A DNA stretch of 64,000 nucleotides, taken from positions 13,917 through 77,916 of the forward strand of contig JAVBQL010000018.1 of NCBI GenBank assembly GCA_031549085.1, written 5' to 3'. Every line of letters starts with the position of its first letter. Position 1 is the stretch's first letter. This document shows positions 24,978 through 59,995 of this stretch, one piece after another. The notes below the pieces were generated by a model. It was given only the letters and a program-made list of their open reading frames with translations. It ran no database searches and was not told the origin of the DNA. The stretch is from Spirochaetota bacterium. Lineage in GTDB: Bacteria; Spirochaetota; GWE2-31-10; MWDO01. Position numbers and translations under genes: made by a program.

Positions 24978-24986
24978 GGGCAGATT

Positions 24987-29542: not shown

Positions 29543-29567
29543 AAAAAAAGCCGCCTATAGTGGCGGC
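29543..29567 (-). terminator. intrinsic terminator of the tRNA operon
   Basis: GCCGCC-tatagt-GGCGGC stem followed by T7 on the minus strand, immediately 3' of tRNA-Gly. Confidence 0.65.
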
Positions 29568-29571
29568 TATG

Positions 29572-29643
29572 AGCGAGAAACGGGACTTGAACCCGCGACA
29601 TCCACCTTGGCAAGGTGGCGCTCTACCACTGAGCTATTCTCGC
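29572..29643 (-). tRNA. tRNA-Gly (anticodon GCC)
   Basis: Manually folded cloverleaf: acceptor GCGAGAA/TTCTCGC, anticodon loop TTGCCAA, U73. Confidence 0.8.
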
Positions 29644-29654
29644 GGTTATAAACA

Positions 29655-29736
29655 TGCGAGCGAAGGGACTTGAACCCCCACACCTCTCGGCACTAGATCC
29701 TAAGTCTAGCGTGTCTGCCAATTCCACCACGCTCGC
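29655..29736 (-). tRNA. tRNA-Leu (anticodon TAG), long variable arm
   Basis: Acceptor GCGAGCG/CGCTCGC, anticodon stem CTAGA/TCTAG, loop CTTAGGA, long variable arm, A73. Confidence 0.75.
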
Positions 29737-29747
29737 AAAAAAAACAC

Positions 29748-29820
29748 TGATCCGTAAAGGATTCGAACCTTTGACCCGCAGATTAAGAGTCTGCTGCTCT
29801 ACCAACTGAGCTAACGGACC
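29748..29820 (-). tRNA. tRNA-Lys (anticodon CTT)
   Basis: Acceptor GGTCCGT/ACGGATC (one G-U pair), anticodon stem GCAGA/TCTGC, loop CTCTTAA. Confidence 0.75.
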
Positions 29821-29826
29821 GTTTAA

Positions 29827-29900
29827 CGCGTCCGACAGGACTCGAACCTGCGACCATCGGATTCGAAGTCCGGCACTCTATCCAGCTGAGCTACAGACGC
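29827..29900 (-). tRNA. tRNA-Arg (anticodon TCG)
   Basis: Acceptor GCGTCTG/CGGACGC, anticodon loop CTTCGAA. One mismatch at 27-43. Confidence 0.65.
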
Positions 29901-29908
29901 AATATCTG

Positions 29909-29981
29909 GGTGAATGAAGGGATTCGAACCCTCAACAACCAGAACCACAATCTGGGACTCTACCGTTGAGCTACATCCACC
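29909..29981 (-). tRNA. tRNA-His (anticodon GTG) with encoded G-1
   Basis: Extra 5' G pairs with C73. Anticodon stem CCAGA/TCTGG, loop TTGTGGT. Confidence 0.75.
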
Positions 29982-29990
29982 AAGTTTTTT

Positions 29991-30063
29991 CGCGCCAACC
30001 AGGAATCGAACTTGGGACCCACAGCTTAGAAGGCTGTTGCTCTATCCGCTGAGCTATTGGCGC
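29991..30063 (-). tRNA. tRNA-Arg (anticodon TCT)
   Basis: Acceptor GCGCCAA/TTGGCGC, anticodon stem ACAGC/GCTGT, loop CTTCTAA. Confidence 0.75.
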
Positions 30064-30073
30064 AATCATTTAT

Positions 30074-30149
30074 TCGGGATGGAGGGATTTGAACCCCCGA
30101 TCTTCTGCTCCCAAGGCAGACGCCTTGAACCGGGCTAGGCCACATCCCG
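30074..30149 (-). tRNA. tRNA-Pro (anticodon TGG)
   Basis: Acceptor CGGGATG/CATCCCG, anticodon stem TCTGC/GCAGA, loop CTTGGGA, A73. Confidence 0.75.
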
Positions 30150-37405: not shown

Positions 37406-38536
37406 ATGGATTTAAAAATCTCTGTCAAAGATTATAAGAAAATTAGAGATGCAAAGGTAGATATAGTTGGACTTACTATGGTTAAGGGGGACAACTCTGC
37501 TGGCAAGTCTACTCTCATAAAAGCCTTAAGATCCTTTATTTTGAACCAGTATAGCCCATCATCCAATCGTTATGGCACTTCTAAAGCAGAGGTCTATGTT
37601 AAGGTAGGAGACGAAGAAGTTACTGCCATAAGAACAGACTCTACTTCTTATATCTATAAGGAACAAACTTTTTCAAAATTAGGTAGGGATAATCTTTATA
37701 AGATTATCCCAGCTTTTCCTTTAAGGGTACTAGAGCTTAATGATGATAAGTTTATGCCTAATTTTGTATTTCAAAATGAGATACCAATTTTTGGACAGGT
37801 AGATATCTATAATCTGTTCAGTTCTATGTTTAAGGTTTACTCAGATCTATCAGGCAAGTTACTAGAGATTAAAACTACCAATAGTCAAAATAATAAAAAG
37901 CTAGACTCTCTTTTGGAGAGTAATGAGAATTATCAGGTTGAATTAAATAAGATAGAGCAGTTTATTAAGAATCACTTTATTTATGAACATGAGTATAATC
38001 AATACCTCGTATATGAGGAACTCAAAGTACAAAGTGATAGACTTGAAAATGGGTTAGGACAGATCCAAAATCTGCTGGACAGTCCAATTTCAGCTGATCG
38101 AAGTTTAAGAGATATGCAGATCTACGAGGGCTATAATTTTAATGGACTTGAGTCTTTTGTTGCTTTTGCAAGTAAGTTTTCTATGTTAGCAGAGGCTTAT
38201 ATTTCCAATCAACGTGATATACAGGCTCTACAAGAGGTTGAAGATAGTGAAAAAGTGTGTAGGGATCAGCTGGAGTTTTTAGAGGCTTGTCAGCATTATA
38301 ATGAATTATCTTTAGAAATTGATGAGTTAAACAATTCATTAGTTCTTGAGTTTTTTATACGAGAAAGTTCAAAAATTTTATGTCTTATTAAGCAGTATTG
38401 TAGCAATGATTTATCAATGGCTCAATTGGTTTCAGATATATCTCAATTAGAGAATGAGATATATGCCATTGAAGATGAGTTGGCTAATTATGATATATGT
38501 CCACTTTGCAATCAGGAGTGGGAGCATAAACATTAG
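37406..38536 (+). CDS. Rad50/SbcC-like ATPase, N-terminal head and coiled coil ending at a CxxC zinc hook
   Basis: Walker A GDNSAGKST, long heptad-rich region, CPLC motif 9 codons before the stop. Confidence 0.6.
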   Translation: MDLKISVKDYKKIRDAKVDIVGLTMVKGDNSAGKSTLIKALRSFILNQYSPSSNRYGTSKAEVYVKVGDEEVTAIRTDSTSYIYKEQTFSKLGRDNLYKIIPAFPLRVLELNDDKFMPNFVFQNEIPIFGQVDIYNLFSSMFKVYSDLSGKLLEIKTTNSQNNKKLDSLLESNENYQVELNKIEQFIKNHFIYEHEYNQYLVYEELKVQSDRLENGLGQIQNLLDSPISADRSLRDMQIYEGYNFNGLESFVAFASKFSMLAEAYISNQRDIQALQEVEDSEKVCRDQLEFLEACQHYNELSLEIDELNNSLVLEFFIRESSKILCLIKQYCSNDLSMAQLVSDISQLENEIYAIEDELANYDICPLCNQEWEHKH

Positions 38537-38830: not shown

Positions 38831-39718
38831 ATGTTAGATTTTGTTAGTTATGATTTTAAAAATTTAAATATCATTTTAGGTAAATTTAATAATATTTTAA
38901 GAGATAAAAATAATTATATTAATTTTAAGAATTTAAGTGAAAAAGAAAAAAAGATTTTAAGTGAAAAAGAGTCGGTGTCCATAGAATTGTCAGCATATGC
39001 TGACAGGGAGTGGACACCTAATTTATTACAGATAGTTAAAGATTTAAATTACAATCGAAGCAGAAAAATAGAGATAGATACGAATATAGCTAAACTTGAT
39101 ATTTCAATTGAAGAGTTAAAAAAGATACTTAAGCTTGATGACAAAGCTTTTAAGTTCTTTTCCTTTATGTTGGACAAGATGACAGAGAGGTATATCCAGT
39201 CTTTTGAGAAGTCTCTTAACGAGATCTATTATTTTGTTTATAGGGATGAGTCTAAACAGATACGACTGGACTCTACAGAGAGCAGAGGTAAAAAAGTTTT
39301 GAAACTAAAGATATGCTCTATTGTAGATGGTAAAACTTATGAAGAGGACATTCAAGATAGTGGTCATTCTGTTTCAGTGGTTTTAGGTAGTGTTCTATTG
39401 GTTTACTATATTGTCTACTGTAAGCTTCCAAGAATACTATTTTTTGATGAGACTTTCAGCGGTCTCTCTACATTAACCATCAGTCGCTTCTTTCAGTTGC
39501 TACAAAACTTTTCAAAAGATTTAGGTTTCAAGTTTCTTATTATATCTCACGATCCCCGCATTGTCAATTTCATGGATCGTATCTATCTGGTTAAGGACGG
39601 GGTCTATTCTTTGGTTAAAGAAAATCTAGATGATGAAGTCCAATCTTTTTTGGAAGATTTAGCTGATGGTTCTACTGAGGGCTTTAGTGTTAGTGACAGC
39701 AATACAGTTGGGGGGTAA
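38831..39718 (+). CDS. Rad50/SbcC-like ATPase, C-terminal coiled coil and head
   Basis: Coiled-coil N-terminus, then an SGH (signature-like) motif, Walker B ILFFDETFSG and D-/H-loop ...LIISHDP. Confidence 0.55.
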   Translation: MLDFVSYDFKNLNIILGKFNNILRDKNNYINFKNLSEKEKKILSEKESVSIELSAYADREWTPNLLQIVKDLNYNRSRKIEIDTNIAKLDISIEELKKILKLDDKAFKFFSFMLDKMTERYIQSFEKSLNEIYYFVYRDESKQIRLDSTESRGKKVLKLKICSIVDGKTYEEDIQDSGHSVSVVLGSVLLVYYIVYCKLPRILFFDETFSGLSTLTISRFFQLLQNFSKDLGFKFLIISHDPRIVNFMDRIYLVKDGVYSLVKENLDDEVQSFLEDLADGSTEGFSVSDSNTVGG

Positions 39719-45934: not shown

Positions 45935-46007
45935 GAACAAGATTAACATTTAAGTTTCTTTTCTGGCTTGAAGGTATAGTTCATAGATTAATAGCAAGGA
46001 TATTTAA

Positions 46008-46964
46008 GTGAAAATTATAGTAGTTGGAGATCCACATTTCTGGGATAGAGATATTTCAAGCAGATGTGATAACTATCAAGACACTTCAATCAATAAGTTA
46101 AAACAAGTTGTAGAGTATCAAAAAAGATATCAAGTGGATTGTGTAATCTTTTTGGGGGACTTTTTTCATGCTCCCCTAACCTCCAAAGAGTATTTAAATG
46201 AGTTGGTTTTGGAACTTAAAAAGTTTCAGTGTCCATTGTACACACTAGTCGGAAATCATAGGGGCGATCAGTCTTATAAAGATTGGAGGTCTTTTGAAAA
46301 GAAAGATTTAGGGACTCTAGTTTTCACTGGTGTTTTAAATATTTTATTAGCATATGAGAGTAGCAATGGGTCTATTGTAGGTATGTCAGCTTATGAAACT
46401 TTATATGATGTTCTATTTGAGATGAATAGATACACCGAGACAACCAAGCCAATTAAAAATGAAGCTATACATATTTTAGCTTGCCACCACTTTATAAAAG
46501 GCAGTGGCTCTTCTTTTGAGGATGATTTAATTTTAGATGTCTCAGAAGTTAAACAAACTTTTCCTAATCTCAAATATATTCTGGCAGGCCATGATCATGC
46601 AAAGTATGATACAAAAATAATTGATGGAGTTAAGATAATACGACCTGGAAGTTTGATGAGAACATCATCAGCTGGGGATCAAGATAGAAATATATGTGTT
46701 GCTTATCTTGATACAGATATGGATATAGTTGAATATCTACCTATCTCTTCTTTAGCTTATAAATCTCTTTTTGTTAACAAGGATCATAAAAAAGATATTC
46801 AAGATAAAATGATGATAGATCAAATTGTATCTAATTTTTCAAACGGTGACAATTTAGATACAATTATGGCAGAGGATTTATTAAAGGAGTCGGTTGAACA
46901 GATTGATAATCTGGAAATCAGAGACTATATAAAAAGTATTTTAAGAAGTATGGGGGTTATTTAG
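46008..46964 (+). CDS. Mre11/SbcD-like calcineurin-fold phosphoesterase (GTG start)
   Basis: Metallophosphatase motifs GDPHF, GDFFH, GNHR, ACHH, GHDHAK in canonical order. Confidence 0.65.
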   Translation: MKIIVVGDPHFWDRDISSRCDNYQDTSINKLKQVVEYQKRYQVDCVIFLGDFFHAPLTSKEYLNELVLELKKFQCPLYTLVGNHRGDQSYKDWRSFEKKDLGTLVFTGVLNILLAYESSNGSIVGMSAYETLYDVLFEMNRYTETTKPIKNEAIHILACHHFIKGSGSSFEDDLILDVSEVKQTFPNLKYILAGHDHAKYDTKIIDGVKIIRPGSLMRTSSAGDQDRNICVAYLDTDMDIVEYLPISSLAYKSLFVNKDHKKDIQDKMMIDQIVSNFSNGDNLDTIMAEDLLKESVEQIDNLEIRDYIKSILRSMGVI

Positions 46965-46966
46965 TT

Positions 46967-47422
46967 ATGTCTATCTGGGACACTTTTGAAAAAGATATGC
47001 GTGGAGATTCTTATGAGTCTAATTGTGAAAAGTATTTTGATAAGGCCACTTCCTATATGAAGAATAGATGTTACAAACAGGATGCCTTTTATTTCAATGA
47101 TTTTAGTTTCTATAAGAATTCAAGCACTCTACTTCTAAAAAGTTTTAATATGTCCATCAGCAGTTTCTATGGTATGCGTAATAGTAAAATATGGAACAAT
47201 AAAGAGTTTGTCTGTTTTTATGATGGAGATAAAGAACCTACTCAACAAGAGAAAGAACGTCTCTGTCTGCCTAGCAGGAACAATCTAAAAATTAACAAAG
47301 CAAACCCGCTATCTTTTTATGTCTTATTCAAACGAATGATAAAAGCATTAGCTTTTATGGATTCAGTACCAGCAGATAAGATACTAGAGAGTATTTATGG
47401 TACTAGTATCAATTTAAATTAG
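46967..47422 (+). CDS. hypothetical protein
   Basis: 151-aa ORF. Confidence 0.3.
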   Translation: MSIWDTFEKDMRGDSYESNCEKYFDKATSYMKNRCYKQDAFYFNDFSFYKNSSTLLLKSFNMSISSFYGMRNSKIWNNKEFVCFYDGDKEPTQQEKERLCLPSRNNLKINKANPLSFYVLFKRMIKALAFMDSVPADKILESIYGTSINLN

Positions 47423-47432
47423 GAGCATAACA

Positions 47433-48839
47433 GTGTCAGATAGTCAAAAAAATGAAGTTCCCTTAGATGATAAGGGTTTTGATTTTGATCTCATTGATGA
47501 GTCCGAAAATGTAGAGATTTCTGTAGGAGAGGTTAAGACTGACCAAGCTTTTTGGAAAATAGATAGGCTGGCTCTTCTCAAGTTCCTATCGGTTGTGGAA
47601 CAATTCCCAACCAATACTTTCATCTATTTTTCTATAAATCAAATTGTTGATGGTTCCAAGGCTTATCTAAAATTTATGGCTAGTAATAGAGACTATCACA
47701 TAGTGCAAAGGTTTCCAATTTTAAATGCCAACTACTTTGTTACAGATCAAGTATTCTATGTACGGGATAAGGTTTTTACGCATCTAGTTAAATCCTATTC
47801 AGATTTCATTTTGCTTTATGCTAATCAAAGTAATCTTATTTTCTTTAATAACTATATAGATTGCAAGCTTGACAATCTCACTTTAAATATTAAAGATTAT
47901 GATCTGCTTATCCCAGATGCTATTTATAAATCACATGATGAGTTTATTTTAGATAAAAGGCTAGCTATGTCTATCAGACAGTTGCTTGCTTTTTCTCTAA
48001 AAGCATCAGACAATAAGATTCTATTTTCAGAAAGTGTGGTTAGAGGTTTCTTTTCTACCTATGCTTTTAAGTACTCTTTTAGCACAGATAAGTTTAAAAA
48101 TCCTTTTATAATGCGTAAACTTGATATATCCGCTTTAGTTCCTTTGCTGGAGTATGAAAATATTCATATAGCTCTTATGAATGATAGAGTCTGGTTTAGG
48201 CTAGATGATACAGGCTACTTCTCCTTTCTCAAATCTAATTTAGAGAGCCCAATGGAGATAAAACAAGATGATTCAAGGTCTATTGGTAAAATTCTAATAG
48301 ATTTAACTTTAATGAAAAAAGCTTTGTTAGTTTCTGGCTTTTTAAACTCCAATATCTTAAAGTTTGAGTCAGTTGGAGACAGCATCATTCTAAATGCTAA
48401 TGATACAACAAAGTTTTCTATAGGGAGCGGCTCTATTTCAGAGCCTTGTAGTCTGTCTATTGATGTCTTTAAAAAGATAATCTTTTTAATTCCAGACTAC
48501 CTAGCTCAATTTACTATTGAGGTCTATGAGAAAGGCTTTTTTATAATGATTGGCAATCAAACAGATTCCTTTAGGTTGGAGTATTTTGTTAGCAAAATCA
48601 ACTCTAATCAGCTTCAAAAAAAGCAGGGAACAGATGTTAAAACAAACGTAGTTGCTAACACACCACAGGTTAAACAATCTACAGATACTATTCAAAATAG
48701 AGTAGCTAATAATTCAGAGTCTAACTTCTTTTCAGGCAGTGACACTACTCCAAGTACATCTTTAAGTGATAAAGATGTAGAAACGAATGTCTCATTAAGT
48801 GATGAGTTAAACGAAATGCTTGGGGATTCTGGAGGGTAG
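47433..48839 (+). CDS. DnaN-like sliding clamp (beta clamp) with low-complexity C-terminal tail (GTG start)
   Basis: About 370-aa core whose three-domain periodicity and patterns (KIDRLALLKFLSVV..., ...MRKLDISALVPLLEY...VWFRLDD...) resemble DnaN. A clamp-loader gene lies 2.7 kb downstream. Confidence 0.45.
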   Translation: MSDSQKNEVPLDDKGFDFDLIDESENVEISVGEVKTDQAFWKIDRLALLKFLSVVEQFPTNTFIYFSINQIVDGSKAYLKFMASNRDYHIVQRFPILNANYFVTDQVFYVRDKVFTHLVKSYSDFILLYANQSNLIFFNNYIDCKLDNLTLNIKDYDLLIPDAIYKSHDEFILDKRLAMSIRQLLAFSLKASDNKILFSESVVRGFFSTYAFKYSFSTDKFKNPFIMRKLDISALVPLLEYENIHIALMNDRVWFRLDDTGYFSFLKSNLESPMEIKQDDSRSIGKILIDLTLMKKALLVSGFLNSNILKFESVGDSIILNANDTTKFSIGSGSISEPCSLSIDVFKKIIFLIPDYLAQFTIEVYEKGFFIMIGNQTDSFRLEYFVSKINSNQLQKKQGTDVKTNVVANTPQVKQSTDTIQNRVANNSESNFFSGSDTTPSTSLSDKDVETNVSLSDELNEMLGDSGG

Positions 48840-49472
48840 ATGTTAGATTTTTATTGCTCACTACCAAAAATAAATACCTTTGATTTCTATATAAAAGGTT
48901 ACACAGAGGTTCTAGAGTTAGTTAGGGGGGTTAGACTAGTCCCTAATAGGGATTTTCTAACCTCATTAGATAAAAGATGGGAAGACTATTTTTATTCTCT
49001 ACCCTTTCCTTACTATTTTATTCCAATTTTTATTGGTTACAAGTGCATTGGTTTTATTCTTAAGGGGGAAGCTAAAAAAACTATAAAGTATTCAGTTGGT
49101 ATTAATGCTTTTAATTTAGATGCAGTCTATTCCAATCTACCTTTTGTTATTTTAGTTGAAGGCATTAAGGATGCTTATGTGTTCTTGCAGGCTGGTCTAC
49201 CTACCATTGCTATACTTACAAATATAGCTTCGCCAGATTTACTGGATTTTATTAAAAAGCATAATAAAAAGATTATCTTTATCCCTGATAATGACTCCGC
49301 TGGAGAGAGTGGTCTACATAGAATGAAAGAGAGATTACAGGGTAACTTTATGAGTTGGAAGTGGAAAGAGTTTAAGGATAGTGGTGATTATTTTAATGAA
49401 CAGTTATCAGGTAAGGTCATTAGAGAGAGTGATAGATGTATAAAGTTTATTCATCAAGCTTTTAGTGTCTAG
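48840..49472 (+). CDS. Toprim-domain protein (DnaG-type primase catalytic core?)
   Basis: Conserved Glu in ILVEGIKD and DxD in IFIPDNDSAGESG. No zinc-finger domain in this ORF. Confidence 0.5.
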   Translation: MLDFYCSLPKINTFDFYIKGYTEVLELVRGVRLVPNRDFLTSLDKRWEDYFYSLPFPYYFIPIFIGYKCIGFILKGEAKKTIKYSVGINAFNLDAVYSNLPFVILVEGIKDAYVFLQAGLPTIAILTNIASPDLLDFIKKHNKKIIFIPDNDSAGESGLHRMKERLQGNFMSWKWKEFKDSGDYFNEQLSGKVIRESDRCIKFIHQAFSV

Positions 49473-49537
49473 TAAATCAGCACAAACCTGAAATCTATGT
49501 TATAGTATTGCATACTTGATTTTATAAGGGGTTACTT

Positions 49538-50917
49538 ATGGATAAAGTATTTTCAATGGCACAAGTTGGAGATAAGAATTTAAGAGCATCTAATTATGCT
49601 GGTATAGATAGTAATACACCAATCACACTTTATGAACGGGGGGATCGAGCTACAGATGATAAGGTTTATATACCAAATGAGATTTTAAAGTTTAGGGATA
49701 TTTCTGATCTAATTAGAATAGAAATATGGGTAAATAAATTCTCACCTGCTTTAGGAGATAATGATTCTATACCTTTTAATGTTCGATGTGATATAAGTGA
49801 TGAAGTGGGTCAAGTTATATTTACTTGGAGTGTAAAAAATAAATTTGAGAGCCTTAAATTAGATTATTTCTGTGATATTTTTTTAGAGCCTAGCAAAGTT
49901 TCTATAAGTGATTTATATGAAAAATTGGATAAACGAGGTGAAAGTTTAGCAAAATCAATGGATTTGAGAGACTTTATACTTAAAAATATGACTCCTAATA
50001 AGGGAGCAGAAGATAAGTTAAAAAGACATTGGTTTTTGCAAGATGGAACTTATGGACATTTAAATATACTACAAAATCCTGACAAAGATGTTAGCCAACA
50101 TAGAGACTACAAAGTTATACCTAGCATGCAAATGTATAAGGGACGCTATTTTAATATTTCTAAAATGTATAAAGATAAGGAAATGACACAAGAAGTGTGG
50201 GTTGTAGAAGGTGATTTAGCTTTTACTTTTTCTGGCAAAGGTCATGCAGTAGATAATGTTAGGATTGAAGATATCAAAAAAAATTTTAACACTTTTGATG
50301 AAGCACAAACTTTTGTCTTATTAAAAATCCCAGAGATTATAGACATACTTCGACAGGCACTAATACAAGAGACAGACAAAATTGAAATAGATACCTTTAA
50401 TCATAGAATTAAAGAGTTTGAACAAGAGGCTCGGAGAATCAAAAAAATAGCATTAGCAGATTTTATTGATTCATCTGTTATAATAAGACAGAGATTCCTA
50501 AAATCTCATGATAATGATTTAGAGCTTTATAAAAAAATCAGGGATAATTATTACAGCGGTTTTAGTGAGGTTTATACTTCAGATTGGAAAATAAATAAAT
50601 GGGTTTTAGATATATTAGCAGATAATTTGGTATGGGGATTCTTTAATTGGAAACGAGAAGATGAGAGCCATTTAGAAGGTAAAAATGAGTTTAGTATGCT
50701 TAAAACTGCTAAAGAGGAGTTTCTTAACTATGCAAGGGGGTTAATGTCAAAACTCAAGGCTCTTAAGCTGGATGATGATGGGTATCACATTATGGTTTTA
50801 GTAAAGAAAACCATTAAAGATTTTAATAAACAATGGCAATCCGAAACGGGTCTTATTAATAGTGATGGTCTACTTAACTATACTAAAGAGATGTATACTC
50901 AAAAGGTTCGGAGATAA
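49538..50917 (+). CDS. hypothetical protein (459 aa)
   Basis: No motif recognised and no P-loop. Confidence 0.35.
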   Translation: MDKVFSMAQVGDKNLRASNYAGIDSNTPITLYERGDRATDDKVYIPNEILKFRDISDLIRIEIWVNKFSPALGDNDSIPFNVRCDISDEVGQVIFTWSVKNKFESLKLDYFCDIFLEPSKVSISDLYEKLDKRGESLAKSMDLRDFILKNMTPNKGAEDKLKRHWFLQDGTYGHLNILQNPDKDVSQHRDYKVIPSMQMYKGRYFNISKMYKDKEMTQEVWVVEGDLAFTFSGKGHAVDNVRIEDIKKNFNTFDEAQTFVLLKIPEIIDILRQALIQETDKIEIDTFNHRIKEFEQEARRIKKIALADFIDSSVIIRQRFLKSHDNDLELYKKIRDNYYSGFSEVYTSDWKINKWVLDILADNLVWGFFNWKREDESHLEGKNEFSMLKTAKEEFLNYARGLMSKLKALKLDDDGYHIMVLVKKTIKDFNKQWQSETGLINSDGLLNYTKEMYTQKVRR

Positions 50918-50919
50918 TT

Positions 50920-51243
50920 TTGGCAAAGAAAGTTAGACATAATACAGCAAAGAAAGTTCATAAAAATGATACTCCGCTTAAGGATAGTTTAACAGATGAT
51001 AGTGAGGTAGTAACTATACGCTATCGTTTTCTGGTCTTAGAAGACATCTCTTTTATGCCAGAAGAGTTCAGAGTTCTTTTTTATGGTAGAGTCTTTTTAA
51101 AGAAGGGTCTCTACTATTTTCATTTTAAGTTTACGCAATTATGGTATGAGCGTTTAATACAGCGATTTATAAAAGATAGTTTTTATAAAAAAAGAATTAT
51201 AGCAAAAGTTGAACAAGGCTTAATGGAGGATATTGATGGCTAA
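50920..51243 (+). CDS. hypothetical protein with basic N-terminus
   Basis: 107-aa ORF. Confidence 0.3.
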   Translation: MAKKVRHNTAKKVHKNDTPLKDSLTDDSEVVTIRYRFLVLEDISFMPEEFRVLFYGRVFLKKGLYYFHFKFTQLWYERLIQRFIKDSFYKKRIIAKVEQGLMEDIDG

Positions 51244-51589
51244 AAAAGTAAGTGTTAATGTTATCGGGGAGAGAGTTTTTTTACAGCTTATAGAAGATAA
51301 GGCTGAAGTTCAGTCTGATGGAGGAGTTCTCACTGGCTCTATCCAAGTTGATAAGAGGTACACAGGGAGGGTTTTAGGTGTAGGAGATGCTTTAGTAGAT
51401 AAAGCACTCCCTTTTGGTATAGGCTCTATTGTTGTTTATGATAAGTTCGGGGGACAAAAGATTTCATTTGATTACACTAATCAATATCTAATAGTTAGGT
51501 TAGATGAAATCTTAGGAGTTATTTCTTATACAGAAACAGAAGATAAATCTAAAATAATTCAGACAGAAAGTGAGTTATTTACGGGGTAG
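51233..51589 (+). CDS. GroES/cpn10-family co-chaperonin (phage gp31-like)
   Basis: Aligns along its length with GroES: VNVIGERVFLQLIEDKAEVQSDGGVLTGS...RVLGVGDAL......GSIVVYDKFGGQKI......YLIVRLDEILGVI. Confidence 0.65.
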   Translation: MMAKKVSVNVIGERVFLQLIEDKAEVQSDGGVLTGSIQVDKRYTGRVLGVGDALVDKALPFGIGSIVVYDKFGGQKISFDYTNQYLIVRLDEILGVISYTETEDKSKIIQTESELFTG

Positions 51590-51590
51590 T

Positions 51591-52514
51591 ATGCAAAATT
51601 TAGCACAGAAATATAGACCTAAACTTCTAAAAGATATTTATGGCCAAAAAGAGGTAGTACAATACTTTCAATCAGTTGTTCGTAAGACAGATTTAGCTTG
51701 CAGGAACTATGTTGTTTTGGGAGCTTATGGCTGTGGTAAAACAACACTAGTTAGGGCTTTTGCTAATGAGCTAATAGGAACTAATAATTGTCAAGGGCAT
51801 CCTAACTATCTTGAACTTGATAGCTCCGAGATATTTTCTAAGAAAGATTTTTCTATTTTAAAGGATTTAATATTTCAATATCAAAATGGTTGGAGAGTAG
51901 TTGTTTTTGATGAAGTACATCTGCTTCCTAGAGAGGTTCAAGGTCAACTTCTAAAAATGATAGAAGAGTCAGAGGAAAGAATCTTTTTCTTTTTTCTCTC
52001 TACAGAACGAGAGGGCATTTTAGATACTATAGTTTCAAGATCATTAGATTTTAATCTTTCTACTTTTACTCATGATCAAGTTATAAACTATTTGGATAAT
52101 ATTCTACAAAAAGAAAATATTACAATCTCAAATGAGTGTAAAGAGATGATAGCTCTAAAAGTTAATGGACATCTTCGAGACGCTATAATGCAACTAGACT
52201 TAATTAAAATATCTGGGGAGTCTTTTTATGTTAGCAACTATGTAAATCTTATGGGTTTATGGGCTAACTATTTCAAAGAGATGGATAGAGTCATTATAGA
52301 TGAGCTTATTAAAAATCCTGTGCCTATTTTAAGAGATACTTTAGATCGCTTTATACTAAATGAACTTATACGCAGAAAGCAAATTTTCACAGATGTTGTT
52401 TTTGTAAAATTTTACTCTACCTATTTAAAAATGAAAAAGAACATCAATACGGATAATGATTTCTTTTGTTTTCTTTATATACTGCTTGATTTTATTAAGA
52501 CATTAAGGAATTAA
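51591..52514 (+). CDS. AAA+ clamp-loader subunit (DnaX/gp44/RFC-like)
   Basis: KYRPK box at the N-terminus (internal start at 51591), Walker A GAYGCGKTT, Walker B VVFDEVHLL, sensor-1-like TIVSRS. Confidence 0.65.
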   Translation: MQNLAQKYRPKLLKDIYGQKEVVQYFQSVVRKTDLACRNYVVLGAYGCGKTTLVRAFANELIGTNNCQGHPNYLELDSSEIFSKKDFSILKDLIFQYQNGWRVVVFDEVHLLPREVQGQLLKMIEESEERIFFFFLSTEREGILDTIVSRSLDFNLSTFTHDQVINYLDNILQKENITISNECKEMIALKVNGHLRDAIMQLDLIKISGESFYVSNYVNLMGLWANYFKEMDRVIIDELIKNPVPILRDTLDRFILNELIRRKQIFTDVVFVKFYSTYLKMKKNINTDNDFFCFLYILLDFIKTLRN

Positions 52515-52521
52515 TTTTGTT

Positions 52522-52977
52522 ATGAAGAATGATTTAAATCACTATTTTAGAAATGGATTAACAGAAGATTTCTTTATTGAGCTTAAGAGGTTTGTCTCTT
52601 ACCTACATAAAAGATATAATCTGGGGGTAAGATTTGATGACTTTTATCAGAGAGTATATGATAAGACAATAGATTTTTATATGTCTGGCAAATGGGATGA
52701 GAGCAGAGGGAGTGTTGCTACCTATATCTATTATATAGCTAGGAATGAGTCATCAAATTTAAAATCTAAAGGTAAAAAGCAAGCAGATTTAAATGATCAG
52801 ATTGTACAAAAAGAGTATAAGAGTATAAAAGACAACGATAGCTATCAGAGATTTATACTCTATGCCAAGCGTTTGGGTATCAAAATAGAAGAGAATGAGT
52901 TTGTTAATAATCTGCATGAGCAGGTGTTAACTCCTATTGTTAAATGTTTTTTATGGAAGACTTACTTGGGGGCTTGA
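52522..52977 (+). CDS. sigma-70 region-2-like factor (phage late/ECF-like sigma)
   Basis: DFYQRVYDKTIDFYMSGKWDESRGSVATYIYYIARNE matches the region 2.1-2.4 pattern (D..Q..F.K.........F..WL..IA.N). Only region 2 is present, as in T4 gp55. Confidence 0.5.
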   Translation: MKNDLNHYFRNGLTEDFFIELKRFVSYLHKRYNLGVRFDDFYQRVYDKTIDFYMSGKWDESRGSVATYIYYIARNESSNLKSKGKKQADLNDQIVQKEYKSIKDNDSYQRFILYAKRLGIKIEENEFVNNLHEQVLTPIVKCFLWKTYLGA

Positions 52978-53389
52978 ATTGTGGATAAACTTCAAAGAGT
53001 TATCAGAAGAGGAATTATTAGATTTTCTTGATGAGATGGCCAAGCTAAATGGTTTTTTATCGAGAGATGAACTCTACTCTCTCTATTTAACTTTTGGAGT
53101 TAATTTTTTCTATATCTTTTGGATGTTGGAAGGCAGGTCGATTAAGTTTCCCAAACTTCAGTTTCATAAAACAATGTTGACTAGGTCAAAAAAGAAGAGC
53201 TTAGAAAAGACATTAGAACCACTCATTATGAAAGAGAATGGAAAATGTTTTGTCCCTGATATAAATAAACATTGTGATTTTTATAAAAACTGCAGATGTT
53301 CTATCTTCAGTGAAGATATCATAAATCTTGAGAGTGCTGGCTGGTGTAATTTTACTTATACACTATATTACATCGGGAAAAAGGTTTAA
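52937..53389 (+). CDS. Cys-rich hypothetical protein
   Basis: C-terminal HCDFYKNCRCS...WC cluster. Confidence 0.3.
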   Translation: MLNVFYGRLTWGLELWINFKELSEEELLDFLDEMAKLNGFLSRDELYSLYLTFGVNFFYIFWMLEGRSIKFPKLQFHKTMLTRSKKKSLEKTLEPLIMKENGKCFVPDINKHCDFYKNCRCSIFSEDIINLESAGWCNFTYTLYYIGKKV

Positions 53390-53429
53390 TACTTTATTTG
53401 AATAACACATTACTTTGATTACTTGCTAA

Positions 53430-53463
53430 AAGAACTTGTCTTACTAAGACAGGTTCTTTTTTT
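53430..53463 (+). terminator. intrinsic terminator
   Basis: AAGAACTTGTC-ttactaa-GACAGGTTCTT (one G-U pair) followed by T7. Confidence 0.6.
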
Positions 53464-53484
53464 ATTTAAAGTTAGGAGTGTTAT

Positions 53485-53868
53485 ATGGTGTTTGGAGATA
53501 AAGCTGTTCAATTAGTAGAACAGAATTTAGATGTTTTATCTAGGGTTACAAATGCTTTAGTTGAACAATTAGAAGTTCCAGAGAATATTAGTAATCCCAA
53601 ATTCTTGTTAGAAGTACATGATACTTTAACAAGAAACTCAACAGCTATTTTGGAGTCAGTTAGAAAGTTAGCTATTACAGATAACAAACTATTTTCCAAT
53701 GGTGTTCTTACTAACACATCAATAGTTACAGTATCAGATGGAGTTATTGGTGAGATAGATCAGGCATCTGTTAATAACTCAAAGTTTGGGAGTGATAATG
53801 CTGTTGTAGAGGCAACTCCTAGCACAGAAGTAACTTCTGAAACTAAAGAGGGAAAGAAAGTTAGTTAA
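53485..53868 (+). CDS. possible small terminase subunit
   Basis: 127 aa. Position immediately 5' of TerL, with the stop overlapping the TerL start (TAATAATG). Confidence 0.3.
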   Translation: MVFGDKAVQLVEQNLDVLSRVTNALVEQLEVPENISNPKFLLEVHDTLTRNSTAILESVRKLAITDNKLFSNGVLTNTSIVTVSDGVIGEIDQASVNNSKFGSDNAVVEATPSTEVTSETKEGKKVS

Positions 53869-53870
53869 TA

Positions 53871-55682
53871 ATGAAAAACTTGAGACTTAAGCGACCCATA
53901 CTTCCTATAGAAGAGTGGATCAATGATCCTTATTATGTTGGTAAAGAGGTAGACTCTATTTATCCTTTTTGGAAAGAGAGGACAATAGAGTTTTTCAATT
54001 CTAAATATAATAAGTTTATAGGTTATGGCTCTTATCGTTTGGGTAAGGGACATGTAATGGGTTGCTTATGGCTCTTCAGGATTCTATATGAAATTAGTTG
54101 CTGTGAAAATTTTTTAGAACAATTTCATCTCTCTCCATCTACTAAACTCAAGTTTGCATTTATCTCATTTTCAAAAGACAAGGCTAGATCTACAGGTTTA
54201 GATAAAATGATTAGAATGATAGATTCTATTCCCTATTTCAATGAGGTATGTCCACGCAATAAAAATCTAAAGTCTAAAATAGATTTAGGTTTTGCAGAGA
54301 TTTATTGTGCTAGTAATGTCTCACATCTCACTGGGGAAGATCTATACGGTGTTATCTTTGATGAGGCAGATTTTGTTAAGTCCGCCGCAGGTGAAGAGTA
54401 TGAGAAAGCAAAAGAGATATTTTTGGAAGCTCAAATCAGAGGTCATGCCACCTATTCCATAGGGGGTAAGCATTATGGTTTTTATGGTCTCTTGTCATCT
54501 GCTCAATATGAGACTTCTTTTACTGAGCAACAATTAAAGTCTGCGGAAGAGAACGATGATGCCTATGTAGTTAAAGCATCCGTTTTTGAGGTTAAACCTT
54601 GGTCTTTTGCAAAAGAGAAGTTTAGGGTATTTTTAGGAGCTGGGGAGATACCACCTTTTATTTTAGATGAAGAGCAAGATTTAAGTACAATTAAAAATCT
54701 TATAAATACTACGTATGGAATAACGTTTGATCAGTTTATTAAAAACTATGAGAATAGAATTAAGTTAGTTCCAGTAGATTTAAAGCCCTATTTTGTCAAT
54801 GACATATCTTATGCAATTAAAACTTTAGTTGGTGAACCTATCCGAAGATCTGGACTATTTCTTAAAAATCACACACTACTTCATAAAGCTTATTTTTTGG
54901 GTTTAAAGTCCCCTTTGTTAGTTGAAGTTCCTCAACTATCTCTTTTTGGATCAGAGGTTATTCAAGATTTTGTAAATGAGGATATCCTATTAGATAACTA
55001 CGAAGCTGGGCAGAGGGTCTACATTCACATTGACCAATCCAAATCTGGAGATAGAACAGGCTTTGGTGCTTTTTTTAAAACATCGTCTGGTCGTATTAGA
55101 TCCCTACTCTATATGGCAATCTACTATGATGATTCAAGAAAAGAGATTGATATTTCAAAAGTTGAAGACATAGTTTATTGGTTTATAGATTTAGGAATTC
55201 CTATAGGTAAACTTACCTATGATCAGTATGCTAGTATCTATGCTAGCCAGTCTCTTAAAAAGAGAGTGGGTAGAGAGAAAGTCGAAACACAATCAGTTGA
55301 TAAAGATGATACTCAATATATGGTTTTTCTATTTTTACTTAAAAAGGGTTTGATAGATATGTACAGGTATCTGCCATTCGAGAAGGAACTATTCACACTT
55401 GAACATGATGCTTATCAGAACAAAGTTTTAAAAGCAAAAGATGGTTCAGATGATGTTAGCCAAGCAGTTGTTGGGGCTATCTATAATCTTTTTCAAAAAG
55501 ATGGAATGTCTAGGGATGAATTGGTTTACACATCTTTAAATAAAGAAGAGGTCATAGATGACTTCTATCTGTCTGCTTTAGCAGATGCAAGCGTAGATAC
55601 CTACTACGATGATTTATTAGTGGATGAGAAAGAGATAGATGCAGAGTATGATTTAATGTCTGGTTTATTAGACAGTGACTAA
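53871..55682 (+). CDS. terminase large subunit (TerL)
   Basis: Walker A-like GYGSYRLGKGHVMG, Walker B VIFDEADF, C-terminal RNase-H-like nuclease acidic residues (HIDQSKSGDRTGF...DGSDDVSQA). Confidence 0.7.
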   Translation: MKNLRLKRPILPIEEWINDPYYVGKEVDSIYPFWKERTIEFFNSKYNKFIGYGSYRLGKGHVMGCLWLFRILYEISCCENFLEQFHLSPSTKLKFAFISFSKDKARSTGLDKMIRMIDSIPYFNEVCPRNKNLKSKIDLGFAEIYCASNVSHLTGEDLYGVIFDEADFVKSAAGEEYEKAKEIFLEAQIRGHATYSIGGKHYGFYGLLSSAQYETSFTEQQLKSAEENDDAYVVKASVFEVKPWSFAKEKFRVFLGAGEIPPFILDEEQDLSTIKNLINTTYGITFDQFIKNYENRIKLVPVDLKPYFVNDISYAIKTLVGEPIRRSGLFLKNHTLLHKAYFLGLKSPLLVEVPQLSLFGSEVIQDFVNEDILLDNYEAGQRVYIHIDQSKSGDRTGFGAFFKTSSGRIRSLLYMAIYYDDSRKEIDISKVEDIVYWFIDLGIPIGKLTYDQYASIYASQSLKKRVGREKVETQSVDKDDTQYMVFLFLLKKGLIDMYRYLPFEKELFTLEHDAYQNKVLKAKDGSDDVSQAVVGAIYNLFQKDGMSRDELVYTSLNKEEVIDDFYLSALADASVDTYYDDLLVDEKEIDAEYDLMSGLLDSD

Positions 55683-55726
55683 TTTTAGCATGATTATTTT
55701 ATTAGAAATATATATTCAGATATTAC

Positions 55727-58700
55727 TTGTCGGAGTTTGTAATGAATACAGCTGGAAAGATTCAATCAAATTTAAATTATCCTGCAGACTATGAAGATAG
55801 TGGGTTATTTAAATATAGTGCTCTTATGCGAGAAGCTCAAAAGATAGCAAAACTCTATGGTTATAGAGAGGATGGATATTATCATGAGGGTGACGATTTA
55901 GCTATTCATTTTAAAGGTGAAACTTTGATTGATAAAGACACTCTTTATGATATAAATAGTGAATGGGAAAGTTTAGTCAATAATTTTGGAGAAGTTAACT
56001 TTTATCCCAATGAGGAAAACCCTAGTGAGTCATCAAGCCTTGTTTTTTACTATTTTGTATACAGTCACTTACTAATTGAGCGAGAAGCAAGAGATGATGA
56101 GGTTAATTCTAGTAAGAATACTAAATCTGTTAAGAGCAATAGTTTTAATTCCAATGAAGATTTCTTAGAGTGGTTTAATAAATCAACAGATGAGGATATG
56201 GATTTCAAGCCTTCTACTGAAATGAGTGTTTTTGTGGAGGGTGAGGAATTTAGTTCTCCCCAAGAAGCAAAAGATATCATTGATGAATTATTAGATGTTG
56301 AATTAGACGAATCTGAAAATAAAGTTTTAGATGAGGCTCTTGTAGATAATCCTATTGTAGAAGATATTTTAATTGAAGATGATTCTATAACTATTACTTT
56401 TACAGAGGATGTTATAAATCAAGATTATCATAGGTTTAAAAAAATTGATATAGATCAATACATGCTCTTTTCTGAAAAAAATCTTAATATCAATATTGAA
56501 GGTAAGATAATAAATTTTTCTGGTAGCAACAGCAATTCAGAGTCAGATTTTTTATATAGGGCTATTCTTAATCAATCTTATCAAGAGTATCAAAAACAGG
56601 GACATCCCTTATTGTCAGATAGCCTAGAACCTTTAAGAAATATAATCAAATATAATCTTTTAAAACGATATAGTTCTATTTTCAGGGATTGCAATACCCC
56701 AATCAGGTGTGAGTCAGAAGACGAACATTTAAAAGATAAAGCTGTTAATGAGTTTATGAATACTCATAATGAGTACCCTGATTCATCAGATGACTGGCAA
56801 GAGGTCGCTCAAATAATGGGCAGGATGAAAGAGGAAGCTGGTGTAGTTACTAGTGACAATAATGAGCCTGCAACACAAGAGGAGATTACAGAAGAGCCAG
56901 CATTCTTTGAAGGGACTCTTACAGAAGAGATCCCCGATGAAGAGAACTCATTGGTATCTTGGATCAATCAATCTGCTTATCATGGTTTTTTGTTTGAAGA
57001 GTCTTATAATGAGTTTATGTCATTTAAACAAAGAATTCCATCTACCAAAAATGATTTTAACTATTTAGTTTTTAAGTCATCTCTTAAATTAAATGACTTC
57101 AAAAAAAATCCAAGACGGGATTTTATTGTGGAGTCTAATTTCATAAATCTCTACTGGCATAATATAATCTTATCAAGATACTTTTTAGGTAAAGAGGGGC
57201 AAGTAAAAGGCATTTTTTCACATTGGAAAAATAAGTCACCCGATCATACTATTGCGTGGATGGAAGCGGAAAATAAATTTAAACTCTTAAATAATCAAGA
57301 GCCAGAGACATCAAGAGATTGGGCAGTTGTTACCTCAACTGCTAAAAAGTATATTGACAGAGTTGTAGAGACTAATTCAGTTGTATCAATGCCTAATATA
57401 GCTCATTTAGGAATTATTGAAGAGAGCAAAAAACTACAAACATCTCTATATCAGGTTATTGGAGTTAATAAAGATGAATCAGGCAAGAAGCATGAATATA
57501 TCATAGATTGTGTTAGAACAAAATCAGAAGCGGATATGTATGAGCCAATGTATAAAAACCAATATTCAGAGGGCATTATAATAAAAGAGCATAAGCATTT
57601 TGGTTTTGGTTTAGACTTAATGGAAGAACTCGTTTCAAGTTTTGACATTAGAAAAAGTTTAGTTTCAAAAAAGAGACAGGTGTTAAGCCAGCTATCTTTA
57701 AGTCTTTTGGGAGATAGCAAGTTTAAGGTTATTAGCAGTATCTTGAGTTTTGTAAAATATTTAAATAAACCTTTGATGAAAAAGTTAGTCAATAACTATT
57801 CTATTGTAATGTCTAGAGTTCTCAAAAATCTACTGGGTAGTAATATTAAATCGTTTTTAACTTTAAGGGACTATCCTTTGATAAACAGACGAGTGGTATC
57901 TGGTCTGTTTATCAATAACTCTTTTACTCTTCATACAGAAGAGGACTTTGATGTTACACAAGCAGACACTTTTACAAAGTGGCTCAATAAGAACTCTGAT
58001 AGTTTTGTATCTCAATATGTAGATAAATTTACGAGGCTTACAGGTAAGACACATCCAACAACTACTGAGGAGTTTATTAGTATTCTTAAATCGGCTGGCT
58101 CTCTTATTTCGGAGGATCTAGAGACTTCTTTTAGAATTCTACCTTTAGGAGAGGTTGAGGCTGAAAAACTAGAGTCCACTTTCTATTCAGATAATTTCTT
58201 AAGGGTCTATAATTATAATCTTCATTCCTTGATGTCAGCAAAAGCTTTTATTAGAACAGAGGCAGATTTAAAGGATTCTAAAAAAGAGACTATTGGATGG
58301 TGGCTTGCTAGTACAGATGAGAATGTAGCTTTTAATACTTTAGATAGCTGGCAAAGTTGGAATGATGGTGCCTTGCCATCTACTTCAGATGAGTTAGTAA
58401 GATTTTTATTATTAGGTAATAGTCATCTTTTTGGTAACGAGGAATTGTTAAATATTTTTAAAGAGTTACCAGATGGCTCAAGCTGGGGTGAAGGTCAGTC
58501 TGTTATTGATGCTTTTAGTAATAGCTCTATTGAAGAAGATGAGGATGATGACAAAGATGATGTAGGTTTTAAAGAGCTTGCAGTGGCTCAATGTGAAAAA
58601 ATTCGTAAATCTAACTTTAATGATAGATTAGTTGAATATCAAGATACTTATAAAATAGCTTTTCAGAGTGATACAAGTAGAGAAGTTAAATCAAGGGCTT

Positions 58701-59995
58701 TACGTATTTTTGGGTCAACTGCTCTTAGGTCTTATTATAGAGCAACAAACTCTGCTTATAAATGGGATACCCCGATGAGTGAGTTATCTGATAATTTACA
58801 GTATGTTATGGGTGTTTATTATGATCTTGAAGCAATTAGTCAAACTGTGGATTTTGATGATTTTCAAAAGGCTTTAGATAAAAAGAGGGTAAAAAAATTA
58901 ACACAGGAAGAGGCTGATTATTTAGAAGATGCTAACTGGCATACCTTATTAAGGTATCTGGGGAAGATGGGTTTAGCATCAAGTCTAAAAAAGCATAATC
59001 TAAAGAATTCTATTGAAGGATACATTGGTGGTTTTAAAATTATTAAATCATCCTCTTTTAAAGTAGGAACACTTCCTGATGCAATGGTAAAAAATTTTCA
59101 AGAGAAGAGTTTTGAAGATTATTCATCTGCAAGGCGTTATCTTTTAGATTCAATTCAAAGTTATATAAAATATATAAAGACTAATACAAACAAGTTTAGT
59201 GATCCACATTCTTTGCAGGCTCGTTTAGAGTTAGAAGAAGAATTTTGGTCTAAGCAGGCTGAAGGAATTAGAAGTAATAAAAATAATATAAAATCACATG
59301 AGAAAAAAACTTGTGGGTCATGTATTCATAGAGATCCAGAGGATGGCCAATGTTTTGTAGACTCTTACGGTTTGAAAGTTGATGCTGATGATGAGGATAT
59401 TTGTGATTATTATAACGGGGAGTCTGATTGGATAAAAAAACGTTTTCCTAGAGATAATTCTAATTCAACTTCTAGTGGCAAGTCTTATAGGGTTATAGGA
59501 ATTAAAAATAATAAAAAGATAGTTATAACACAATCTAAAAATAAAGACTTAGTGAATAGAGTAGCTAGTAAGCATAGAAGCAGTGGCATATATTCTGAAG
59601 TCATTATAGAGAGTGGTAATGAGGTAACCAAATATAACGGAGGTAATACTCAAACAGATTTATCTAATTTAGAAGGATATCTCTCTTGGTTACAGATTTT
59701 TATAGGAGATATTCATAACGGATTATATAGAATGAAACCTCGTGATAGAACTGTAGGTTTTAAGCAGGTTCTTAATTTTTTGGATGAGATGTATAAAAAG
59801 ACTATGGATATTGTTAATCGTTATGGAAATGAATCTAACCAAGGGGAGTTGGGACAAATAGTAAGACTTATAAAGAATGCAAAATCCTCTATTACAAACT
59901 TTTTTGAAGATCCTATTGACGATGAGGCAACTTATTCAGATGTCTTTAGTTATTTAAGCAAGATATTAGAAATAGCAGAATCTTTAGGTGAGTAA
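55727..59995 (+). CDS. very large virion-associated protein (1422 aa); portal-containing fusion or polyvalent structural protein?
   Basis: Position directly after TerL. Acidic, coiled-coil-rich, C-terminal Cys cluster (CGSCIHRDPEDGQCF...ICDYY). No motif assignable by eye. Confidence 0.35.
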   Translation: MSEFVMNTAGKIQSNLNYPADYEDSGLFKYSALMREAQKIAKLYGYREDGYYHEGDDLAIHFKGETLIDKDTLYDINSEWESLVNNFGEVNFYPNEENPSESSSLVFYYFVYSHLLIEREARDDEVNSSKNTKSVKSNSFNSNEDFLEWFNKSTDEDMDFKPSTEMSVFVEGEEFSSPQEAKDIIDELLDVELDESENKVLDEALVDNPIVEDILIEDDSITITFTEDVINQDYHRFKKIDIDQYMLFSEKNLNINIEGKIINFSGSNSNSESDFLYRAILNQSYQEYQKQGHPLLSDSLEPLRNIIKYNLLKRYSSIFRDCNTPIRCESEDEHLKDKAVNEFMNTHNEYPDSSDDWQEVAQIMGRMKEEAGVVTSDNNEPATQEEITEEPAFFEGTLTEEIPDEENSLVSWINQSAYHGFLFEESYNEFMSFKQRIPSTKNDFNYLVFKSSLKLNDFKKNPRRDFIVESNFINLYWHNIILSRYFLGKEGQVKGIFSHWKNKSPDHTIAWMEAENKFKLLNNQEPETSRDWAVVTSTAKKYIDRVVETNSVVSMPNIAHLGIIEESKKLQTSLYQVIGVNKDESGKKHEYIIDCVRTKSEADMYEPMYKNQYSEGIIIKEHKHFGFGLDLMEELVSSFDIRKSLVSKKRQVLSQLSLSLLGDSKFKVISSILSFVKYLNKPLMKKLVNNYSIVMSRVLKNLLGSNIKSFLTLRDYPLINRRVVSGLFINNSFTLHTEEDFDVTQADTFTKWLNKNSDSFVSQYVDKFTRLTGKTHPTTTEEFISILKSAGSLISEDLETSFRILPLGEVEAEKLESTFYSDNFLRVYNYNLHSLMSAKAFIRTEADLKDSKKETIGWWLASTDENVAFNTLDSWQSWNDGALPSTSDELVRFLLLGNSHLFGNEELLNIFKELPDGSSWGEGQSVIDAFSNSSIEEDEDDDKDDVGFKELAVAQCEKIRKSNFNDRLVEYQDTYKIAFQSDTSREVKSRALRIFGSTALRSYYRATNSAYKWDTPMSELSDNLQYVMGVYYDLEAISQTVDFDDFQKALDKKRVKKLTQEEADYLEDANWHTLLRYLGKMGLASSLKKHNLKNSIEGYIGGFKIIKSSSFKVGTLPDAMVKNFQEKSFEDYSSARRYLLDSIQSYIKYIKTNTNKFSDPHSLQARLELEEEFWSKQAEGIRSNKNNIKSHEKKTCGSCIHRDPEDGQCFVDSYGLKVDADDEDICDYYNGESDWIKKRFPRDNSNSTSSGKSYRVIGIKNNKKIVITQSKNKDLVNRVASKHRSSGIYSEVIIESGNEVTKYNGGNTQTDLSNLEGYLSWLQIFIGDIHNGLYRMKPRDRTVGFKQVLNFLDEMYKKTMDIVNRYGNESNQGELGQIVRLIKNAKSSITNFFEDPIDDEATYSDVFSYLSKILEIAESLGE

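Follow-up and report, generated by a model that had tools for sequence, protein, structure and literature searches.

A highly diverged Cpn10/GroES-family gene next to a clamp-loader gene in a phage gene block, and its possible role as a lid on host GroEL

Which role does a GroES-like gene play in a phage gene block in which no GroEL gene accompanies it? The question is posed by one small gene in the window, as we call the whole stretch of 64,000 nucleotides that was analysed. A first-pass annotation had described it as a phage-encoded GroES (cpn10) homolog of 118 aa at 51233-51589. In the ORF listing of the window the frame 51233-51589 (+) is indeed open. However, the TTG at 51233 lies one codon upstream of a likelier start, the ATG at 51236, and the gene most likely comprises 51236-51589 (+), i.e. 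117 aa and a stop codon. We adopted this call because a GGAGG and the ATG can be read in the sequence and because the NCBI and Logan gene calls, which are public and independent of each other, both give the identical product of 117 aa. The start codon overlaps the final 8 nt of the upstream 107-aa ORF, which suggests translational coupling. At the other end, the stop codon TAG is followed 1 nt downstream by the ATG of the clamp-loader gene. The features around the start are:

50920..51243, + strand: upstream gene of 107 aa (BLASTP synteny, gene table of the related locus L087)
51224..51228, + strand: Shine-Dalgarno sequence GGAGG, 7 nt before the ATG (read from the sequence)
51236..51589, + strand: Cpn10/GroES-family co-chaperonin gene (Pfam Cpn10, phrog_3188, AlphaFold2 and Foldseek, NCBI and Logan calls)

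The assignment to the GroES (cpn10) family was borne out by profile comparisons. The Pfam Cpn10 model (PF00166) aligns with the protein over profile positions 2-93 of 93 with an E-value of 3e-11, and a significant match to the cpn10 profile, on which the annotation had made its reading depend, was thus found (43.6 bits at a gathering cut-off of 21.1 bits). Among the PHROGs, phrog_3188 ('co-chaperonin GroES') was matched with an E-value of 6.8e-10. Solved Cpn10/GroES chains recognised by sequence include Chlamydomonas Cpn20/Cpn23 and the proteins of Thermus, Mycobacterium and E. coli (GroES); the best of these PDB matches is Chlamydomonas Cpn20, the structure of which was solved in complex with ClpP. 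The window gene is a genuine but highly diverged member of the Cpn10/GroES family.

How far it has diverged is seen from the more specific models and from the search for relatives. All 12 NCBIfam GroES models are matched (12/12), the best with 35.1 bits, and all matches stay under the respective cut-offs of 96-215 bits. An exhaustive search of 1.84 billion representatives delivered 70 matches at E<=1e-3, the query among them; none of the others reaches 1e-10 or exceeds about 40% identity. A word-indexed search of 5.8 billion proteins returned the query as sole entry, tblastn against 50,697 GenBank phage records gave nothing at E<=0.01, pattern scans for the protein in GTDB genomes and IMG/VR found none, and megablast of the 10-kb neighbourhood was without a match. 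By these searches the protein is a sequence orphan without a close homolog. Since it is such an orphan and scores far under every NCBIfam GroES cut-off, we regard it as a Cpn10-family protein that is not an orthodox cellular GroES. A groES-groEL operon setting was not found either, the neighbours being the phage 107-aa ORF and the clamp loader. The significant Pfam and PHROGs matches are to Cpn10/GroES, and similarity to gp31 or CocO was not found among them; judged by sequence, the protein belongs to Cpn10 proper and not to the gp31 family.

The AlphaFold2 model, which was built from 38 aligned Cpn10 sequences, has a mean pLDDT of 83.6, with 66 residues above 90. Low confidence is confined to the mobile loop and to the C-terminal tail (residues 101-117). 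A structure prediction of the mobile loop had been proposed in the first-pass annotation; with a pLDDT of about 60 at residues 21-40, the loop is predicted to be flexible. In a Foldseek comparison with the PDB, ranks 1-34 all go to Cpn10/GroES chains, mostly solved as part of GroEL-GroES complexes (probability 1.0, E-values from 7e-6 upwards), and T4 gp31 (1g31) follows at rank 35 with an E-value of 7e-3 and 13% identity. Among the predicted viral structures of BFVD there are 74 matches at E<=1e-3, and many of the top matches listed are named co-chaperonin GroES. The mobile loop, the GVGD and the C-terminal strands, which had been noticed from the letters, are all present in the alignment as a GGVLTGS loop, an LGVGD motif and the C-terminal strands; conserved are the loop glycine, GxVxxVG and, in the C-terminal strands, YLIxxxxxILG.

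Three regions depart from the common pattern:

51293..51364, + strand: mobile-loop region, residues 20-43, with G30-V31-L32-T33 (pLDDT, alignment)
51386..51421, + strand: shortened roof region, residues 51-62 (alignment and AlphaFold2 model)
51524..51586, + strand: C-terminal extension of 21 residues, SYTETEDKSKIIQTESELFTG (alignment and AlphaFold2 model)

In the loop, G30 stands in an invariant alignment column and is equivalent to G24 of E. coli. The residues that come after it are V-L-T-G-S, whereas E. coli has I-V-L-T-G-S; the flanking TGS is kept as in E. coli. The hydrophobic stretch of the loop therefore consists of two residues and not of three, which can be read as a tripeptide V-L-T or as a deletion of one residue. 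The polar third residue is the sole case among the 26 aligned Cpn10s that served for the comparison of loop and tail. Between two conserved glycines the roof measures 12 residues, five fewer than the 17 of E. coli GroES, and the AlphaFold2 model contains no beta-hairpin in it. The tail of 21 residues, set against a median of 2 in the same 26 proteins, is acidic (5 acidic and 2 basic residues) and is modelled with low confidence as a short predicted helix.

From about 32 kb on, all genes of the window lie on the + strand and their content is phage-like. The position of the Cpn10 gene between replication genes and the clamp loader, as first described, is evident from this part of the block:

36284, + strand: UvsX-like recombinase
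37406-38536 and 38831-39718, + strand: SbcC-like ATPase in two parts, separated by a small ORF
41025, + strand: DNA methyltransferase
46008, + strand: SbcD-like phosphoesterase
48840, + strand: toprim primase
51591..52514, + strand: clamp-loader ATPase, DnaX/RFC-like (phrog_5846, E 5.5e-40; PDB DnaX gamma/tau, E 1.6e-18)
52522..52977, + strand: protein of 151 aa with a weak Sigma70_r2 match (E 0.0031, below cut-off)
53428..53460, + strand: terminator-like hairpin, 15-bp stem and T-run (the strongest in the scanned region 46000-56000)

The split of the SbcC-like gene is also present in the related locus L087 and, given this same arrangement, appears to be conserved and not a frameshift. The clamp loader is nearer to bacterial DnaX than to T4 gp44. 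The 151-aa gene stands directly after the clamp loader in 5/5 relatives compared, and its product, for which no PDB match was found, is a candidate phage (late) sigma factor. The hairpin at 53428-53460 probably closes the transcription unit of Cpn10 and clamp loader, ahead of the packaging and structural genes. In GC3 and codon preferences, the Cpn10 gene is closer to the phage genes than to the host genes, and this better fit makes it less likely that the host gene was captured very recently.

That the window contains no GroEL gene had been noted in the first-pass annotation, and both checks agree with this: no Pfam match to Cpn60 was obtained in any of the 14 ORFs of at least 400 aa within the window, and the motif GDGTT / DGTTT is absent from every frame of it. 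The wording 'without a GroEL partner' holds for the window only; the rest of the element, which could encode a GroEL, extends beyond it.

The packaging and structural module begins with the terminase and has these genes in the window:

53871..55682, + strand: terminase large subunit
55727-59995, + strand: ORF of 1422 aa
60020-62263, + strand: ORF of 747 aa
62311-63678, + strand: ORF of 455 aa

By tblastn the terminase matches 92 phage records (E 1e-34; identity about 25%, coverage 89%). Terminases of Vibrio siphophages of roughly 80 kb show such an identity of about 25% over 89% of its length. The 1422-aa ORF has no Pfam or PHROG match, and the same place is taken by a 1318-aa ankyrin-repeat protein in the relative L089. 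The 747-aa and 455-aa ORFs are conserved in the lineage, where they stand between terminase and portal. For these two no significant match was found in Pfam, PHROGs, the GenBank phage tblastn or the PDB profiles; a head-completion match of the 747-aa ORF in Pfam is weak and below cut-off. Their position parallels that of the T4 tail sheath and tube genes, a resemblance of position only.

Closer relatives of the terminase (41-51% identity) are encoded on metagenomic contigs of 30-115 kb. These share a common gene order, which is clamp loader, sigma-like gene, small genes, terminase, two to four conserved genes, portal and protease. The portal is of the Portal_T4 type and is followed by a large protein with a Peptidase_S77 domain; in L087 the protease exceeds the Pfam cut-off (29.6 vs 27) and a Gp23-family protein is recorded. 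BLASTP synteny between the window and L087 covers UvsX, SbcCD, the primase, the 107-aa ORF, the clamp loader, the sigma-like gene, the terminase and the 455-aa ORF at 62311. It follows from this synteny that the 1422-aa ORF has been inserted behind the terminase gene. Likewise, since the homolog of the 107-aa ORF directly adjoins the clamp loader in L087, the Cpn10 gene is additional at this place. Some relatives carry inteins and HNH or LAGLIDADG insertions in portal and terminase genes (L088 9712-12789; P0098-P0160), and one large group of terminases with inteins, roughly 825-835 aa long, comes from contigs of which the longest measure about 120-217 kb. In other relatives, polyvalent proteins of 2400-2700 aa (ART-PolyVal, NUDIX, acetyltransferase) are located after the protease gene.

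Does the element of the window possess such a head module as well? A portal protein of 648 aa (P0177), 37% identical to the L087 portal and matching Portal_T4 over nearly the whole profile (E 8e-12), is encoded on a contig of 181,980 bp; this is the exact size of the contig of the Cpn10 gene, and the protein stems from the same sources as the Cpn10 protein. Peptidase_S77 and Gp23 were seen in the relatives only, and for the Cpn10 element this portal is the sole head-gene match. Because of this portal on a contig of the same size and the head genes of the relatives, the element probably carries a T4-type head module just past the window end. The first-pass annotation had suggested looking for the major capsid gene at 62311 or later. 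The ORF at 62311 was rejected as a capsid gene, as it is homologous to the gene that precedes the portal in the relatives according to L087 synteny, and the capsid gene is expected beyond the window. The terminase, with its identity of about 25% to Vibrio siphophages, is not T4-like, and the clamp loader is of DnaX-like appearance.

The Cpn10 gene is unevenly distributed in this lineage. It was found in 3/8 members examined (the window element, L084, L086, L087, L089, L093, L094 and the P0080 contig), at three different positions. A Cpn10 profile search of the loci of the relatives identified a single gene, in L089, which encodes 94 aa, is located downstream of the clamp loader and shows 23% identity to the window Cpn10. 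The gene table of the P0080 contig contains a Cpn10 of 89 aa about 2.6 kb upstream of the clamp loader. Within about 10 kb upstream of the terminase, no Cpn10 was found in L084, L086, L087, L093 and L094, and none was found in L088, where just 3.5 kb upstream of the terminase are covered. On account of these three occurrences at three positions, Cpn10 is best described as a patchy and variable accessory gene in the lineage, which has either been gained more than once or evolves and moves fast. As five relatives with the same head module are without a Cpn10 near the terminase, the capsid protein of the lineage does not generally need a phage-encoded lid. This also bears on the proposal that the gene supports a large-capsid, T4-like biology: T4-type head genes do exist at the level of profiles. 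However, with 5/7 relatives having the same head module and no Cpn10 near the terminase, the presence of Cpn10 is itself no evidence for such a biology.

The first half of the window poses a question of its own. From position 1 to about 29.6 kb (up to 31163 in a wider reckoning), i.e. for about half of its length, the window is bacterial chromosome with genes for TilS, a TonB-dependent receptor, a pseudouridine synthase, an ABC permease, MiaB, AroQ, UvrB and an M23 peptidase. UvrB has matches of 53-59% identity in GTDB genomes, scattered over many phyla. Weak matches of host genes (7928-8938, 24273-27035, 28258-29403) to the Leptospira-specific NCBIfam models LIC12708, BatA_Lepto and LIC_10271 were also observed, besides a WG-repeat protein; the weak Leptospira-model matches hint at a spirochaete-like host of low GC content (32%). 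Between the bacterial and the phage genes lies a tRNA array:

29545-30149, - strand: compact operon of seven tRNAs (Pro, Arg-TCT, His, Arg-TCG, Lys, Leu-TAG, Gly) set about 5-10 nt apart, also delimited as 29571-30149

The operon ends in a GCCGCC/GGCGGC hairpin with a T-run, and a PhzF-family gene is situated after the array. Compared with the phage database, the array showed generic tRNA similarity only, and no tRNAs were found in the loci of the relatives. Two Logan contigs of the same run break, with an overlap of about 30 nt, inside tRNA-Gly(GCC) at 29571-29643; one contains the M23 peptidase and bacterial DNA, the other the remaining tRNA array, PhzF and the phage genes. Since both contigs break there, a repeat of at least k-mer length must be present at tRNA-Gly. 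Such a break could stem from a duplicated attachment site, from a multicopy tRNA gene or from a false join within the long NCBI contig. An integrase was not found between 31.2 and 36.3 kb. The designation as a phage element is thus supported by the block of phage genes and has to be amended in that the block is joined to a bacterial chromosome, so that we are dealing either with a prophage or with a mis-join at the tRNA-Gly gene. T4-type head genes would be unusual in a prophage.

What, then, might the protein do? We consider a phage-borne, highly diverged Cpn10 that serves as a lid on host GroEL for phage proteins, with a gp23-type capsid protein as likeliest client, to be the best account of the data, and hold it with moderate confidence. 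In the lytic cycle, the protein would assemble as a heptameric lid, and the flexible loop with G30-V31-L32-T33 would dock onto the apical domains of host GroEL. Such a lid would divert the host chaperonin to the folding of phage proteins. The most plausible client would be the gp23-type major capsid protein, which in the lineage is encoded downstream of the T4-type portal and the S77 protease. Shortened roof and acidic 21-residue tail may alter the folding chamber, comparable to the roofless lid of T4 gp31. Here, we infer the heptamer, the binding to GroEL and the client from what is established for GroES, T4 gp31 and RB49 CocO (PMC5649160); the timing of expression is likewise a proposal. That the protein acts as a GroEL lid as such is quite likely, despite the degenerate tripeptide of its loop (V-L-T, or V-L after a deletion of one residue), which speaks against a lid. 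The capsid-directed version is rated lower because of the five relatives which have the same head module and in which no Cpn10 was found in the roughly 10 kb ahead of the terminase.

The same patchy distribution at differing positions, which is accessory-like, would also suit a general-purpose helper that boosts the supply of co-chaperonin or replaces host GroES and serves many clients instead of being dedicated to the capsid. The gene is part of a replication (early/middle) operon and does not stand among the head genes, and viral GroES genes are spread over many kinds of phage, as seen from the BFVD matches and in PMC5649160. However, the two phage co-chaperonins studied experimentally, gp31 and CocO, are capsid-specific (PMC5649160), the lineage encodes a gp23-type capsid protein and the shortened roof resembles that of chamber-enlarging lids; we therefore regard such a helper as possible and rather unlikely. 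Somewhat less probable still is a protein that does not cap GroEL at all, be it a Cpn10 fold re-purposed for another partner, as a decoy or as an inhibitor, or the product of a decaying or functionless gene. The degenerate V-L-T tripeptide, the unusual 21-residue tail and an orphan sequence with bit scores far under the cellular GroES cut-offs would fit this, and Cpn10 proteins can bind other machines, as Chlamydomonas Cpn20 solved with ClpP exemplifies. Against both versions stand the intact frame with its good ribosome-binding site and the full-length Cpn10 core, which is modelled confidently (pLDDT >90 for 66 residues). E. coli GroES has the same loop glycine and flanking TGS, and 23% of environmental viral GroES likewise have position 2 or 3 of the loop occupied by a polar or charged residue (PMC5649160). 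Very improbable is a cellular GroES paralog of the bacterium that fills the first half of the window. The window is continuous with the bacterial genes TilS, UvrB, MiaB and TonB-dependent receptor, and extra groES copies do exist in some bacteria. Yet this origin is contradicted by synteny, as the block corresponds to stand-alone phage contigs from UvsX to the terminase; moreover, the nearest bacterial gene is 20 kb away, the Cpn10 gene is translationally packed with the phage clamp loader, and its product fails every NCBIfam GroES cut-off.

Returning to the lid on host GroEL, the protein can be compared with three known systems. With E. coli GroES (PDB 1AON) and PF00166 it shares the fold, the length of the domain, the loop glycine with TGS, GxVxxVG and the C-terminal strands. 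Unlike bacterial GroES, it has a polar third residue in the tripeptide, a roof that is 5 residues shorter and the acidic C-terminal tail of 21 residues, its gene lies outside a groES-groEL operon in a phage block, and identities do not exceed about 40%. Phage and virioplankton GroES (phrog_3188, PMC5649160) resemble it in being divergent and present as small subunit only, and both polar loops and roof deletions are known there. Environmental viral GroES are abundant and very diverse, with a mean pairwise identity of 28.8% among viral clusters (Marine et al. 2017, PMC5649160), and 165/175 chaperonin-carrying phage genomes encode the small subunit only (PMC5649160). Roof deletions occur in gp31, CocO and some environmental viral GroES and are thought to enlarge the chamber (PMC5649160). 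In contrast to known phage GroES, the window gene has no match in GenBank phages or IMG/VR, belongs to an uncultured lineage and is contiguous with bacterial DNA. T4 gp31 and RB49 CocO are similar in the proposed role as GroEL lid, in the reduced roof and in a lineage with gp20-type portal, gp21-type protease and gp23-type capsid. The protein differs from gp31, however, in sequence (the identity of 13% mentioned above), in a roof that is shortened and not absent, and in a loop only about 2 residues longer than that of GroES; unlike in T4, terminase and clamp loader of the window element are not T4-type.

Taken further, the element could be an integrated or integrating member of an undescribed phage lineage (contigs of roughly 80-115 kb with T4-type head genes) at the tRNA-Gly of a low-GC Gram-negative bacterium, in which co-chaperonins were gained repeatedly at different positions. 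Two-residue hydrophobic loop, truncated roof and acidic C-terminal tail would then mark a new lid variant which reshapes the chamber of GroEL to suit a gp23-type capsid protein. We put this forward as a speculative proposal that we do not expect to hold in full.

Phage-encoded GroES is a textbook case of a virus that re-tools a host machine, and many such proteins have been catalogued. A phage GroES without GroEL is already well documented, and the window gene is a further example of this known phenomenon, which alone opens no new question. What it contributes is one very divergent sequence, from a phage lineage that is uncultured and has distant T4-type head genes. The odd loop, roof and tail of the protein could serve studies of how lid variants tune the GroEL chamber, and the patchy occurrence among close relatives allows capsid folding to be compared in nature between phages that have a lid of their own and phages that lack one.
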